Shown: positions 11,880 through 15,565 of the stretch, piece after piece | Layout of the letters: the number at the start of each line of letters is the position of its first letter | How positions within the stretch are numbered: position 1 is the first letter of the stretch | Source: a virus | Direction: 5' to 3' (one strand) | Length of the DNA stretch: 64,000 bases | IMG/VR virus record: IMGVR_UViG_3300042451_001197 | Coordinates: 42,820-106,819 of that record | Translations under genes and position numbers: made by a program | Notes under the pieces: generated by a model | Told to the model about the DNA's origin: nothing | What the model saw: the letters and a program-made list of their open reading frames with translations, nothing else | Databases searched by the model: none

Positions 11880-12191
11880 ATGAAATTCGAGATAAGTGAT
11901 AATAAGTTGGAGAAGGTTGTCTTTAAGTATTTGGAAGGTAAGAACTTTATCATTAGGGAAACCCCTTATGATTATTACTTTTTGGAAAACGAGGGCGATA
12001 AATATGTTCAAATTAGAATCAGAAAAAATGATATGGTTTGTTTTATTTATTACAAATTAAGTGAAGAAATTGAATCGTTTTTTTCAATTGAATTTCCTAT
12101 GGTTAAAGATGTTTTAAAAAAATATGTTGAGAATATCCTAAATATTAAAGTATCTAAAACATTTTTATCTCCAACTATTTTAATTGCGTAG
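11880..12191 (+). CDS. MKFEI-family paralog ending in a repeat-spacer unit
   Basis: Family consensus; VENILNIKVSKT encoded by repeat 12126-12160. Confidence 0.8.
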   Translation: MKFEISDNKLEKVVFKYLEGKNFIIRETPYDYYFLENEGDKYVQIRIRKNDMVCFIYYKLSEEIESFFSIEFPMVKDVLKKYVENILNIKVSKTFLSPTILIA

Positions 12192-12210
12192 TTGAGAATA
12201 CCTTAAATTA
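12126..12210 (+). CRISPR. CRISPR-like repeat-spacer-partial repeat unit
   Basis: GTTGAGAATATCCTAAATATTAAAGTATCTAAAAC, 30-nt spacer (12161-12190), then GTTGAGAATACCTTAAATTA. Confidence 0.6.
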
Positions 12211-12227
12211 ATCTATTTATGTAATAA

Positions 12228-12554
12228 ATGAAATTTTTAATAACAGAAAATAAATTGGATAATATAATCTTTCAGTATTTGGATAATAAGAACTTTATCA
12301 TTAAAGAAACTCCTTATGATTATTACTTTTTAGAAAACGAAGATGATGAATATCTTCAGATTAGAGTTAGAAAAAGTGATATGGAGTGTTCTTTATTCTA
12401 TGATTTAACCGAAGAAATTAAATCATTTTTTTCAATTAATAAACTTAAAATCAAAGATGTTTTAACAAGATATGTTGAGGAGACCTTAAACATTAAAGTT
12501 TCTCACGTATGGATGGATGGGTCGTTACACATCTCGATGTTAAAAAAGGGTTAA
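12228..12554 (+). CDS. MKFEI/MKFLI-family paralog with degenerate repeat-spacer unit (12474-12560)
   Basis: Family consensus; repeat 12474-12508, 30 nt, GTT at 12539. Confidence 0.8.
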   Translation: MKFLITENKLDNIIFQYLDNKNFIIKETPYDYYFLENEDDEYLQIRVRKSDMECSLFYDLTEEIKSFFSINKLKIKDVLTRYVEETLNIKVSHVWMDGSLHISMLKKG

Positions 12555-12573
12555 AATATTATATTTATGTTAT

Positions 12574-12930
12574 ATGAAATTCTTAATCACCGAAAATAAA
12601 TTGGATAGGATTATTGATTCTTTTATCACCAAACAATTTGAAAATTTGGAACATATTAAAGAAGGTAATTTGGTTGTTTGGGTTGACCCTGATAAAAAAC
12701 CATATGTACTTATTAGACACGATGATAATGGTGATTACGATATTAATATTTTGGAAAGTATTTATTTTTTGATTAGTGATATGTTTTCTATTAAAGAACT
12801 TGAAGATGTGGAGAAATACTTATTAAAATGGTTTGAAAAACACACGGGGATGATTGCCGATGTTGTTTTCGCATTTGATAACGATATAACCTATGAAGAA
12901 ATTATTAGTATATATATTAAAGGTGCCTAA
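12574..12930 (+). CDS. divergent family member, MKFLITENK leader
   Basis: ORF track; stop lies inside a degenerate repeat, followed by 30 nt and ATTGATAATACCTTAAATTA at 12964. Confidence 0.75.
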   Translation: MKFLITENKLDRIIDSFITKQFENLEHIKEGNLVVWVDPDKKPYVLIRHDDNGDYDINILESIYFLISDMFSIKELEDVEKYLLKWFEKHTGMIADVVFAFDNDITYEEIISIYIKGA

Positions 12931-13000
12931 CACCAATAAAGAATTTTACCGGTTTTTCAATTTATTGATAATACCTTAAATTAATGTATTTATGTAATAT

Positions 13001-13348
13001 ATGAAATTCTTAATCACCGAAAATAAACTTACCAAAGTTATTCAAAAATATATTAATTTTAAAACTAATGACCCTGAATTTAATTGGGTGGATAAAATTG
13101 TTATTGAACGTGGAACAACTGAAGGAATTGGTTCTGATATATTCCCCCTGTATACTTACAAAGTTTATTTTAAAGAAGATAATCCCGATTACGAATCACA
13201 ATTAAAATTATGGCATGTTATATCTTCCGCCCATAAGTTATTATTTCAATCGGATAATGAGGGAAATCCTGTGGCTTATTTTACCACATCTTCCATTAAA
13301 CCTGATGGTTCAACTGATTCATTACCAAGCTATCAAAGTAAAAGTTAA
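13001..13348 (+). CDS. hypothetical protein, MKFLITENK leader, unrelated body
   Basis: ORF track. Confidence 0.75.
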   Translation: MKFLITENKLTKVIQKYINFKTNDPEFNWVDKIVIERGTTEGIGSDIFPLYTYKVYFKEDNPDYESQLKLWHVISSAHKLLFQSDNEGNPVAYFTTSSIKPDGSTDSLPSYQSKS

Positions 13349-13364
13349 TGCATATTTATACCAT

Positions 13365-13685
13365 ATGAAATTCGAGATAAATAGTGATAAATTGGGGCAG
13401 GTAATTTTTAAGTATTTGACTATTAAATTATCTATTAAAGAAACTCCCGACGGTTATTATTTTTCAGAAGATGGAAATAATGCACATATTGTGGTTAGAA
13501 AAGACAATATGATTTGTTATGTTAGTATTGATTTTTTGGATGAAATTGAATCATTTTTTTCTATTGAATATCCTTACTCTATAGATTTTGTTAGTGAATA
13601 CGTTGAAAATATTTTAGGTGTTAACTTGCTCAGGACTGTACCATATCTTAAAAGTTGGATTGTTCCTCCCCCTGATAATAATTAA
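13365..13685 (+). CDS. MKFEI-family paralog
   Basis: Likely start MKFEINSDKL at 13365 after TATTTAT. Confidence 0.78.
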   Translation: MKFEINSDKLGQVIFKYLTIKLSIKETPDGYYFSEDGNNAHIVVRKDNMICYVSIDFLDEIESFFSIEYPYSIDFVSEYVENILGVNLLRTVPYLKSWIVPPPDNN

Positions 13686-13734
13686 TTAAAATTTTGTATT
13701 TGTTTATTTGATAATTTATCATTATCTTTGTATT

Positions 13735-14457
13735 ATGATTTCAGATAAAATTAAAAAAATTATATTTGATAAATTATATAAGGATTTATCTAATGTTGAG
13801 ATTATTCCCCACGAAAATAGTATTTGGTTTATAGATAGGGAAGAGAAGTATTGGTATTTTGAATTTACCAAGTCAGGTGAATTGTGGTGGAGATATTCTT
13901 TCTTTGTTGATTTTTTTCAGTTTTTTTCTATGGAATATAAGGAGTTTGTACCGATTATTAGTGAATGGGTGGAAGAGGTTTTGAATTCTAAGGTGTTTGA
14001 AACAGGGAAATTATTTTACGACTATGCACCTGAAGTGGAAGAGATATTAAATTCTAAGGTATCTACAACTGAAAGTTTATCCTTTAAGTCAGTAGGGTTG
14101 GTGGAAGAGGTATTAAATTTTAAGGTGTCTACAACTACTTCTAAATTTTCAAAAAAAAGCATTATGGTGGAAGAGGTATTAAATTCTAAGGTGTCTACAA
14201 CTACGAAAAGACATTCCCCACATATCAGACAGGTGGAAAAAGTGTTAAATTCTAAGGTGTCTACAACAATTCAGGCACAATTTCTTCTTCAGTCTCGGGT
14301 GGAAGAGATATTAAATTCTAAGGTATCGACAACTTGGTTAAATGGTTGTAATAGGGATGAAAAGGTTGGGGAAGTATTGGATTGTAAGGTGACTGAAACC
14401 AAATTAGGTCCTACAAGTAAATTTTATGAAATAAATAAGGTTTTATCTCAAACATAA
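13735..14457 (+). CDS. protein with seven 22-aa VEEVLNSKVSTT+10 variable residue repeats
   Basis: ATG at 13735 after TATCTTTG; repeats visible in translation. Confidence 0.8.
   Translation: MISDKIKKIIFDKLYKDLSNVEIIPHENSIWFIDREEKYWYFEFTKSGELWWRYSFFVDFFQFFSMEYKEFVPIISEWVEEVLNSKVFETGKLFYDYAPEVEEILNSKVSTTESLSFKSVGLVEEVLNFKVSTTTSKFSKKSIMVEEVLNSKVSTTTKRHSPHIRQVEKVLNSKVSTTIQAQFLLQSRVEEILNSKVSTTWLNGCNRDEKVGEVLDCKVTETKLGPTSKFYEINKVLSQT
13969..14399 (+). CRISPR. CRISPR-like array (7 repeats, 66-nt period) translated in frame
   Basis: (G)GTGGAAGAGRTATTAAATTCTAAGGTRTCTACAAC at 13969, 14035, 14101, 14167, 14233, 14299, 14365 with unrelated 30-31 nt spacers. Confidence 0.6.
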
Positions 14458-14488
14458 CTTAATTCAACATCTCATATATTTATATGAT

Positions 14489-14797
14489 ATGAAATTCGAG
14501 ATTAGTGGTGGTAAATTGGAACAAGTAATATTTAAATACTTGGACGGTAAAAACTTTACCATTAGGGAAACTCCAACCAATTATTATTTTTTTGGTGAGC
14601 CTCCACACCATTACGCAACAATAAATGTTAGAAAAAGTGATGAGAAGTGTTTTATATATCCAAACCTAATTGAACATCTATCTTCTTTTTTTTCTATTAG
14701 TGATATAATGTCAACTGACATTATATTAAAATATACCGAAAGTAAACTGAATAATGAATCAACTTCATTATCTCTAAAACTATATGGTGATAATTAG
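14489..14797 (+). CDS. MKFEI-family paralog
   Basis: Family consensus. Confidence 0.8.
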   Translation: MKFEISGGKLEQVIFKYLDGKNFTIRETPTNYYFFGEPPHHYATINVRKSDEKCFIYPNLIEHLSSFFSISDIMSTDIILKYTESKLNNESTSLSLKLYGDN

Positions 14798-15174
14798 TCG
14801 TTCACCCTCTCTATATTAACCATTTTACCATCAGTAAACTTAGCTGAGAACTCAAACCAAGTTTCATTAACATTTGTGTAGAATCTAACATATCCGTGGT
14901 GATTAATTGTCTCAAGTCTTTCGTTAACTCTTCTTAAACAACCAAAAAGATTAGATATTCCAACCTCATTCATATATGGTCTTTCTTCATTTGGAACTTC
15001 TTCCATTTCAAACCTGTTAACTTTAATCTCACCTTCATTGGTTATGTAAATTTCAGTTAATTCTCTGTCAAAATCCTTTGTCTGAAATTCGTGATTTTCA
15101 CCAATTAGTTCCTTTTCTTCTTTTGTTATTGGAAGTAAATTTGTATCAATAAATAAGTAATCGAACATTCCCAT
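14794..15174 (-). CDS. conserved phage hypothetical protein (MGMFD..FQTKD..F.AKFTDG)
   Basis: ORF track; TACCTTTG upstream. Confidence 0.7.
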   Translation of the reverse strand: MGMFDYLFIDTNLLPITKEEKELIGENHEFQTKDFDRELTEIYITNEGEIKVNRFEMEEVPNEERPYMNEVGISNLFGCLRRVNERLETINHHGYVRFYTNVNETWFEFSAKFTDGKMVNIERVND

Positions 15175-15233
15175 ATCTTTTTCTTTTTTACAAAGGTAAT
15201 AAAATATTATGGGAAAAACAAATATTTATTAAT

Positions 15234-15560
15234 ATGAATTTTGAGATTAACGAAAACAAATTACAAAATATTGTCTTCAAGTATGTGGACAATAAAAACT
15301 ATGTCATTAAAGAAACTGATAATGATTATTACTTTATAGAAAACGAAGAAGATGAGTATGCTCAGATTAGAATTAGAAAAAGTGATAAAGTTTGTGTTAT
15401 TTATCACAAATTAACTGAAGAAATTGAATCGTTTTTTTCAATTGAATACCCTATGGTTGAAGATGTTTTAACGAGATATGTTGAGAATACCATAAATATT
15501 GAGGTGTCTAAAACCCTATTAGGTATAAATCTTAAAGCAGAAGCGTTGAGAATACCTTAA
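15234..15560 (+). CDS. MKFEI-family paralog ending in a repeat-spacer unit (..LRIP)
   Basis: Family consensus. Confidence 0.8.
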   Translation: MNFEINENKLQNIVFKYVDNKNYVIKETDNDYYFIENEEDEYAQIRIRKSDKVCVIYHKLTEEIESFFSIEYPMVEDVLTRYVENTINIEVSKTLLGINLKAEALRIP

Positions 15561-15565
15561 ATTAA
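15480..15565 (+). CRISPR. CRISPR-like repeat-spacer-partial repeat unit
   Basis: GTTGAGAATACCATAAATATTGAGGTGTCTAAAAC, 30-nt spacer (15515-15544), then GTTGAGAATACCTTAAATTA. Confidence 0.6.

Follow-up and report, generated by a model that had tools for sequence, protein, structure and literature searches.

Why should several small, paralogous genes of a phage each end in something that resembles a CRISPR array, and is it the RNA or the protein made from such an end that matters? The question is raised by a 64,000-nucleotide (nt) stretch of DNA, hereafter the window, which is the last 64 kb of the 106.8-kb IMG/VR virus record IMGVR_UViG_3300042451_001197 (positions 42,820 to 106,819). In its region 10435-15947, on the plus strand, lies a tandem cluster of small paralogs of an orphan family of proteins of about 95 amino acids (aa), and an earlier, sequence-only reading had described units of repeat, 30-nt spacer and partial second repeat at the ends of four of them. 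That reading had overlooked the array in open reading frame 13735-14457, a gene of the same cluster.

Gene 13735-14457 (plus strand), which belongs to a sister branch of the ~95-aa family, encodes an N-terminal domain of about 78 aa followed by seven in-frame units. The seven 36-nt repeats (13968-14399, starting at 13968, 14034, 14100, 14166, 14232, 14298 and 14364) recur with an exact 66-nt period, and the six 30-nt inserts between them are mutually unrelated. As 66 nt correspond to 22 codons, the array stays in frame. The first six repeats carry 0-6 mismatches and the decayed last one 11, and a decayed terminal remnant of the array lies at about 14430-14457. The part of the protein encoded by the array was predicted to be disordered, with a predicted local distance difference test (pLDDT) score of about 30; solenoid-like structure matches of this tail were discarded because they rest on the pLDDT-30 model.

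The fourth insert (14202-14231, plus strand) is identical at 30 of 30 positions to a bacterial gene for an HxlR-type regulator (PF01638, E-value 7e-28). The core of the insert was found on nine metagenome contigs without repeats nearby, which average 37% guanine plus cytosine (GC) and are at best 74% identical to the sampled Bacteroidota genomes; on them the hxlR gene adjoins a short-chain dehydrogenase gene and a restriction-modification cluster. The identity stops at both repeat borders, with a flank microhomology of at most 2 nt, and the phage reads the insert in another frame than hxlR and in the same sense as the bacterial messenger RNA (mRNA). Capture of foreign DNA with a fixed ruler is the hallmark of CRISPR adaptation, and insert 4 is a capture of foreign DNA with a 30-nt ruler. 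Since the sister array holds one insert that reproduces a stretch of a bacterial gene exactly, up to the repeat borders, the earlier description of the units as CRISPR-like holds for their strict architecture.

The nucleotide anatomy was compared over 71 arrays, with 151 unique units, taken from 74 sources that comprise the window and related phage loci. The period was 66 nt in 287 of 304 intervals and another multiple of 3 in the remainder. Information content was 1.1-2.0 bits at most of positions 1-36 of the unit and 0.01-0.23 bits at positions 37-66. The conserved 36-nt block is out of register with the codons: its first base is the third position of the codon before it, and its last is the second position of a Thr codon. 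In 99% of units that leading wobble base is G, independent of the residue encoded; the Thr wobble at position 34 is A in 99%, and the next Thr wobble, at position 37, is random. The protein data come from 1207 predicted metagenome proteins of the array form, in which the period was 22 residues in 497 of 524 intervals, with 326 distinct inserts among the 497. Residues without an NNG codon (F, Y, H, N, D, C and I) made up 32-35% of these distinct inserts at positions 1-8 and 26% at position 9; at position 10, where Met and Trp were enriched, they occurred in only 9 of the 326. The non-codon borders, the conserved wobble bases and these protein data together indicate that the unit is defined on DNA and not on protein.

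Selection on the open reading frame is clear in the long arrays: in-frame stops occur in none of 135 unique inserts, whereas 63% and 28% have one when read in the other two registers. The filter is not a demanding one, since random 30-mers taken from the likely host DNA would pass it in about 58% of cases. The inserts have a GC content of 41%, compared with 32% for the phage loci, and a codon usage unlike that of the adjoining domain. Their residue usage resembles translated random DNA and, together with the disorder of the array tail, suggests that the cassettes are tolerated rather than shaped. No insert occurs twice within any of 158 unique arrays, which argues for growth by insertion of new DNA and not by duplication. 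Between related phages, shared inserts stand in the same order and whole units are present or absent: 166 of 171 array pairs were colinear, with 471 unshared units upstream, 283 internal and 281 downstream. The terminal repeat of all the long arrays is truncated, with conservation confined to positions 1-19 (or 24) and a typical reading of VEEVLNQ-stop. Synonymous sites within the repeat stay conserved even between phages with N-domains of only about 50% identity, which shows that the DNA or RNA of the repeat matters too.

In frame, the half repeats of the cluster would read VENTLN-stop at 12191 and 15545 and VDNTLN-stop at 12964, which makes them the counterpart of the truncated repeat that closes all the long arrays, and the units at the ends of genes 11880-12191 and 15234-15560 (both plus strand) are therefore arrays with one insert (mini-arrays). 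In gene 11880, a full repeat (12126-12160, encoding VENILNIKVSKT) is followed by a 30-nt insert (12161-12190), which is unlike the other inserts and identical in three other lake metagenomes, and then by a half repeat (12191-12210). This half repeat matches the first copy at 16 of 20 positions, lies past the stop codon (a TAG that ends at 12191) and overlaps the promoter-like region of gene 12228. In gene 15234, the corresponding parts are a full repeat at 15480-15514, encoding VENTINIEVSKT, a 30-nt insert at 15515-15544 and a half repeat at 15545-15564 (17 of 20), all again on the plus strand; the stop codon falls within the half repeat, which is read in another frame and is followed by a promoter-like region and the start of gene 15579. 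For these two genes the sequence-only reading was correct, both in the succession of a 35-nt element, 30 unrelated nt and a recurrence, and in the second copy being out of frame or past the stop. A scan of the whole window at an offset of 65 nt gave at least 16 of 20 matches only at 12126/12191, at 15480/15545 and at 6817-6824, over a background mean of 5.9 of 20; the third place (window 6817-6890) is unrelated.

The remaining units that had been proposed were weaker. In gene 12228-12554 (plus strand), which has a full repeat at 12474-12508 and a tail conserved in the closest relative of the window phage, L006 (about 90% identical), the second copy at 12539 matches at 10 of 20 positions. At 12964-12983 (plus strand), upstream of gene 13001, the half repeat is good and is an orphan with no convincing full repeat before it, as the claimed first copy ending at 12933 agrees at only 4 of 20 positions ungapped and, with gaps, at 19 of 24 to the 3' part. 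A fainter 66-nt unit at 10681/10747 reached 16 of 36, a value equalled by 14.6% of the pairs 66 nt apart in the region, and no second repeat copy is present in the three single-domain paralogs at 10435-10767, 10801-11094 and 11126-11431 (all plus strand).

The comparison of gene 15234 with its ortholog in L006 showed that an insert can be exchanged as a whole. The upstream flank is identical at 108 of 115 positions and the downstream flank at 75 of 77 (94-97%); the inserts between them, of 30 and 32 nt, are unrelated and no more alike than shuffled sequences (p 0.26). The mutual likeness of inserts 12161-12190, 15515-15544 and that of the L006 ortholog was likewise no higher than for shuffled sequence. 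The gene-end inserts are 30, 30 and 32 nt long, giving periods of 65 and 67 nt that occur in 0 of the 304 internal intervals of the long arrays. Such periods are to be expected where an insert comes last before the stop and nothing downstream needs to stay in frame. Both the one-spacer form at a gene end and the replacement of its insert between orthologs are newly described here. Elsewhere in the cluster, the window and L006 differ by the presence or absence of whole genes, at 13699-14477 and 11880-12227, and genes 13735 and 11880 are both absent from L006. Contigs of four lake sequencing runs held identical pieces and no clear population variation at the mini-arrays, with the exception of one contig that diverges just upstream of 15545; the many loose ends at repeat borders in these runs belong to the arrays of other phages.

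The protein family at whose end the units lie has no Pfam, PHROG, PDB or Atlas relative, with viral hypothetical proteins only from the ESM Atlas, and fold searches gave no match (best Z 4.8, Foldseek E above 0.1). The family is present in several copies on at least 21 related phage contigs. The AlphaFold2 model of the gene 15234 product, made with 44 relatives, has a pLDDT of 90.7 and consists of a helix, four strands, two helices and one strand. In this model the repeat encodes the end of the last helix (alpha3) and the linker that follows, and the motif is therefore common to all paralogs, as the conserved C-terminal Y/W-V-E-x-x-L-N-x-K-V-S-x-T. GAG was enriched at the Glu codon of the motif (23 of 34, compared with a 34% background), in sequences that are related, so that the p-value is not trusted. 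A family member at L018:8729-9106 has its C-terminal motif duplicated in frame at a 14-residue period (WVENGINDRNRRTNGVENTLQMRVTKT), which is another way to repeat the same site.

Our preferred explanation, to which we give a probability of about 60%, is that arrays grow by integrase-type insertion at the C-terminal codons of the ~95-aa family, with the gene-end units as the minimal form and the translated protein as the selected product. The C-terminal codons would double as the repeat, and CRISPR-type arrays would grow from that site, each new unit comprising exactly 36 bp duplicated and about 30 bp of foreign DNA inserted. The chemistry would be that of a Cas1-Cas2 integrase with its ruler. 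The enzyme would most likely be supplied in trans by the type II-C/VI-B machinery of the host, because the phages are without cas1. Gene 13735-14457 would have undergone at least six such insertions, with inserts that carry a stop or are of the wrong length being purged. Genes 11880 and 15234 would show the minimal form, a full repeat, one insert and a truncated terminal repeat as in the long arrays; with the insert the last before the stop, its length would be free and the half repeat need not be in frame. Our best guess is that the selected product is a protein in which a folded domain carries a disordered tail of 10-residue cassettes that are tolerated, and that the repeat is kept at the DNA level as an integration substrate or a mimic of Cas binding. 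The anatomy of the arrays, their borders in the nucleotide sequence, the kept frame, the exchange of an insert between orthologs and the bacterial source of one insert are shown; which integrase acts, and what the units are for, we infer. In a more specific version, foreign DNA would be written in 30-bp pieces into the 3' ends of phage genes by the host's adaptation machinery, or by a phage enzyme that uses the same ruler; there the pieces would be kept translated and generate 10-residue cassettes, the gene-end units being the birth stage. We hold this version tentatively, with the odds somewhat against it.

This explanation has precedents in the literature. In F. columnare, a type II-C Cas1-Cas2 fills the VI-B array in trans (PMC8092290), and new arrays can originate from off-target integration (Nivala 2018, as cited in PMC6698737). 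A host system of a fitting kind is seen in Flavobacterium sp. J27, which has cas13b next to an array of 36-nt repeats and 30-nt spacers and, separately, a cas1-linked array. The array geometry fits the type VI-B/II-C arrays of Bacteroidota. Searches of the record and of four related phage records, among which is one complete genome of 321 kb, found neither Cas1 (PF01867) nor Cas13b (NF038190), other cas families not having been searched; the Cas13b model was also silent in all 14 control genomes, so that the Cas13b blank is weak. The earlier statement that the window holds no cas gene stands for cas1 and, more weakly, for cas13b. Of the four options that the sequence-only reading had offered for the function of the units, capture of spacers to diversify C-termini fits best. 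Overall, its observation was partly confirmed and its interpretation partly supported.

Several findings weigh against our preferred explanation. The array in gene 13735 has a first repeat that departs from the internal repeats at 6 of 36 positions, at odds with strictly leader-proximal insertion, and the last copy keeps only the first 18-24 nt, whereas canonical integration duplicates the whole repeat. The gene-end repeat is identical to the array repeat of the same phage at 22 of 35 positions and differs at 13. The one-spacer unit is carried by only 3 of 52 unique single-domain relatives, all in the window phage and L006. The arrays are identical in lake metagenomes deposited from 2020 to 2024, which points to slow turnover. 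No bacterial array with the phage repeat was found by a strict pattern in 185,579 species genomes. The half repeat belongs to a conserved module upstream of genes 12228, 13001 and 15579, and promoter function may conserve it. Lastly, only one protospacer was found, and it belongs to a long array and not to a mini-array. The three mini-array inserts (12161-12190, 15515-15544 and that of L006) had no source among viral contigs, the L006 insert matching its own contig only, and insert 12934-12963 had none among the fetched loci, with which alone it was compared.

Other searches for the origin of the inserts gave similar results. Two other array inserts had no source in the viral-contig scans, and the five such scans made with insert cores returned no contig other than the insert's own. 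When viral contigs were scanned for a 14-mer, single matches at chance level were all that appeared. Protospacers sought in the record, the fetched loci and the related genomes G001 (complete) and G003 (82% complete) did not exceed shuffled controls, and there were none among GenBank phages. A Pelagibacter phage matched at 28 of 30 positions, but across a repeat border, and we regard this as chance. The protospacers that had been hoped for from inserts 12161-12190 and 15515-15544 were not seen in viral contigs.

After translated, integrase-written cassettes, we rank second the explanation that the units act as RNA, being transcribed as CRISPR RNA (crRNA)-like decoys for a host Cas13b or Cas9, or as guides against the host or rival phages, with translation secondary. 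We consider this unlikely, in spite of several features that it would account for. The geometry of 36 plus 30 nt speaks for it, and the phage repeat, in mRNA orientation, is identical at 24 of 36 positions to a genuine Cas13b repeat (over the last 14 nt in phage variants). The conserved synonymous sites would fit a role of the RNA, as would the retention of the half repeat after the last insert at the nucleotide level even where it is untranslated; the part kept in the half repeat is the portion retained by type II crRNA. The insert derived from a host could pair with host DNA. In addition, solitary repeats of phages are known as RNA anti-CRISPRs (PMC10651486).

The genuine repeat in question came from a looser periodic search pattern, which found one real VI-B array and two coding repeats of Peptococcaceae; this result is partly circular, as the pattern imposes 13 nt. 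The real array is that of Flavobacterium sp. J27, in which cas13b adjoins an array of 36-nt repeats and 30-nt spacers, the repeat being the one that agrees at 24 of 36 positions with that of the window. In the same genome, a cas1-linked array (L261:8017-8890) has a 46-nt repeat that begins with GTTGAGAAT, nine bases with which the gene-end repeat and 12 of 52 family motifs also open. At J27 L148:4760-6260 (minus strand), the same insertion of about 62 nt (...CCTTTATTGTATTCACTTTGCTTCTATTG...GATTTGAAAGG...) interrupts each of six repeats of the Cas13b array and has the look of a small mobile element with the repeat as its target. The sequence-only reading had instead pointed to a type VI-A (Cas13a) likeness. 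The LwaCas13a repeat it had named is a genuine, published sequence and the count of 24 of 35 is correct, but unrelated 35-mers of the window reach 22-23 of 35, and as far as sequence comparison goes, this resemblance is not above chance in an AT-rich window.

What counts against an RNA role is first the strict frame, with 0 stops in 135 inserts and 304 of 304 periods a multiple of 3, which is not required of RNA. Secondly, the phage repeats lack the poly-U loop and the defined, stable hairpin of VI-B repeats: the array repeats had folding z-scores between -0.1 and -1.7 and the two mini-array repeats scores of -1.0 and +1.0, compared with -3.1 for the J27 repeat. The ATACC/GGTGT stem that had been proposed did not survive these comparisons, since folding energies were not better than those of shuffles, and the predicted outer stem is kept in 41 of 137 repeat variants and broken in 96 without compensatory changes. 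Neither a match to an Rfam CRISPR-DR family, even at E-values up to 10, nor an anti-repeat on the opposite strand was found. Finally, the hxlR insert has the sense of the mRNA, and a sense transcript therefore cannot target that mRNA via Cas13b.

Third in our ranking is ordinary evolution of gene ends, in which the first copy is a protein motif, the 30 nt a fast-evolving tail, and the second copy part of the promoter and 5' module of a downstream gene of the MKFLITENKL type, moved by recombination between paralogs without any integrase. This is improbable in our judgement, for all that every paralog conserves the motif as protein and the predicted fold includes it, that the window and L006 agree in most of their orthologous tails, and that the spacing varies from 65 to 67 nt. 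The half repeat is common to three loci, upstream of 12228, 13001 and 15579, together with about 65 further nt that include the first codons of the next gene. Within the module, a plausible -33 TTG, followed after 19 nt by a TATTTATG box, comes close to the -33/-7 promoter pattern of Bacteroidota. Against these points, the identity between motif and half repeat (16-18 of 18-20 nt) is far above background and unique in the cluster, and the insert was replaced outright, and did not drift, between flanks that are 94-97% identical. Moreover, the long arrays of the family all end in the same truncated repeat, and the sister array captured foreign DNA.

The last alternative, a protein tandem repeat that expands by unequal crossing-over under diversifying selection on 10-residue loops, its CRISPR likeness being coincidental, can draw on the frame that is open everywhere, the 1207 predicted metagenome proteins, one in-frame 6-nt variant of the repeat and a few inserts alike as peptides, but it is very improbable and already largely refuted by the hxlR match (30 of 30 bacterial nucleotides read in another frame), as well as being at odds with borders that are not codon-aligned, a wobble G conserved whatever the residue, the absence of a duplicated insert from all 158 arrays, a residue usage like that of translated random DNA and the predicted disorder of the array part.

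CRISPR arrays are regarded as non-coding, and repeats borne by phages as RNA tools. Here the same architecture lies within genes, in frame over hundreds of units in many phages, and at least one unit comes from a bacterial chromosome. If the host Cas1-Cas2 acts on this site, phage genomes would be natural off-target substrates of adaptation, the site may serve as an adaptation sink or supply decoy RNA or protein, and capture of the integrase type can create coding sequence. If true, it would add a way of diversifying proteins that differs from both diversity-generating retroelements and recombination. The one-spacer gene-end units would be its smallest, and perhaps nascent, state, with insert length free once the frame is irrelevant.

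In common with CRISPR arrays in general, the phage arrays have near-identical direct repeats of constant length and unique spacers of near-constant length; associated cas genes, sought as cas1 and cas13b, were not found. Among known systems, they share with the type VI-B arrays of Flavobacteriia (Smargon et al., bioRxiv 10.1101/092577; Hoikkala et al. 2021, PMC8092290) the 36-nt repeat with 30-nt spacers, the CAAC end, the lack of adaptation genes beside the array and, in the one insert with an identified source, an exact copy of foreign DNA. They differ in lying within a maintained open reading frame, without cas13b in the phage, in a repeat whose 5' end in the arrays is GGUG or GUGG and not GUUG, in having neither poly-U loop nor stable hairpin, and in that the sole phage insert with an identified source comes from a bacterial chromosomal gene. 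Compared with the 5'-GUUG/CAAC-3' ends of VI-B repeats, the array repeat reads GGUGG...ACAAC and the mini-array repeat GUUG...AAAC, with 3 of 4 pairs in each.

In the neo-CRISPR loci of Nivala et al. (2018), as these are cited in PMC6698737, a spacer and a duplicated "repeat" likewise arise at a non-CRISPR site that resembles a leader-repeat junction, and a one-spacer unit is the expected first product. By that account, those loci come from an E. coli type I-E experiment and lie on chromosome and plasmid, whereas the phage site is natural and conserved in a gene family, with long arrays, a frame that is kept and a half repeat as the last copy.

Archaeal viruses carry mini-arrays with repeat-like elements and zero to two spacers. 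The solitary repeat units and RNA anti-CRISPRs described by Camara-Wilpert et al. (2023, PMC10651486) are likewise repeat-like elements with zero to two spacers, and in both cases the viral genomes are devoid of cas genes. Elements of these kinds are non-coding, closely match the host repeat and have spacers, if any, that target related viruses; by contrast, the repeat described here is coding, the best real counterpart found agrees at 24 of 36 positions, and no viral target was found in our searches. Spurious proteins from translated CRISPR arrays (Rubio et al. 2020, PMC7673337) are similar as predicted proteins with spaced repeats that derive from repeat-spacer DNA. They are annotation errors on frames open by chance, whereas here 135 of 135 unique inserts and 304 of 304 periods obey a single frame, in an array that is joined to a folded domain. 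In multi-core peptide precursors, of which the cyanobactin PatE is an example, near-invariant DNA flanks surround short hypervariable coding cassettes, behind a conserved N-terminal part. The phage cassettes differ from these in their fixed 30 nt, their non-codon borders and the foreign origin of at least one of them. A reading as such precursors was dropped, as there are no modifying or processing enzymes or proteases nearby and the insert borders are set at the nucleotide level.

The window derives from a jumbo phage of lake water whose host is probably a member of the Bacteroidota. The 106.8-kb record is estimated to be 36% complete, which implies a jumbo phage of about 300 kb, and lake-water metagenomes from many studies hold pieces identical to the window, which has a GC content of 29%. 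None of the sequencing runs listed for the region was of RNA. The window has no Shine-Dalgarno sequences, and a TAnnTTTG box stands upstream of gene 13735; based on the known promoter consensus, the box points to a Bacteroidota host. A TATTTAT box is conserved 5-8 nt ahead of nearly every ATG of the cluster (window 10770-15580), and gene 13735 has a canonical TATCTTTG box at 13724-13731. Judged by their position, these boxes suggest one promoter per gene and mRNAs that are leaderless or nearly so.

Rfam scans of the window, by gathering threshold and by E-value, gave three transfer RNA (tRNA) genes and otherwise noise. The tRNA genes (Arg-TCT, Glu-TTC and Ser-TGA) and a gene for a 502-aa HNH/homing endonuclease (phrog_3339, E-value 4e-99) lie at 54334-54922 and 58388-59896 of the window. 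A second paralog family is interleaved with the ~95-aa family, at 11453-11878 (plus strand), 15944-16336 and 16348-16956 (both minus strand). Its members have no Pfam match and share a common N-terminus, MKLQEQIxRIQxMM or MNLQQTIRRI.

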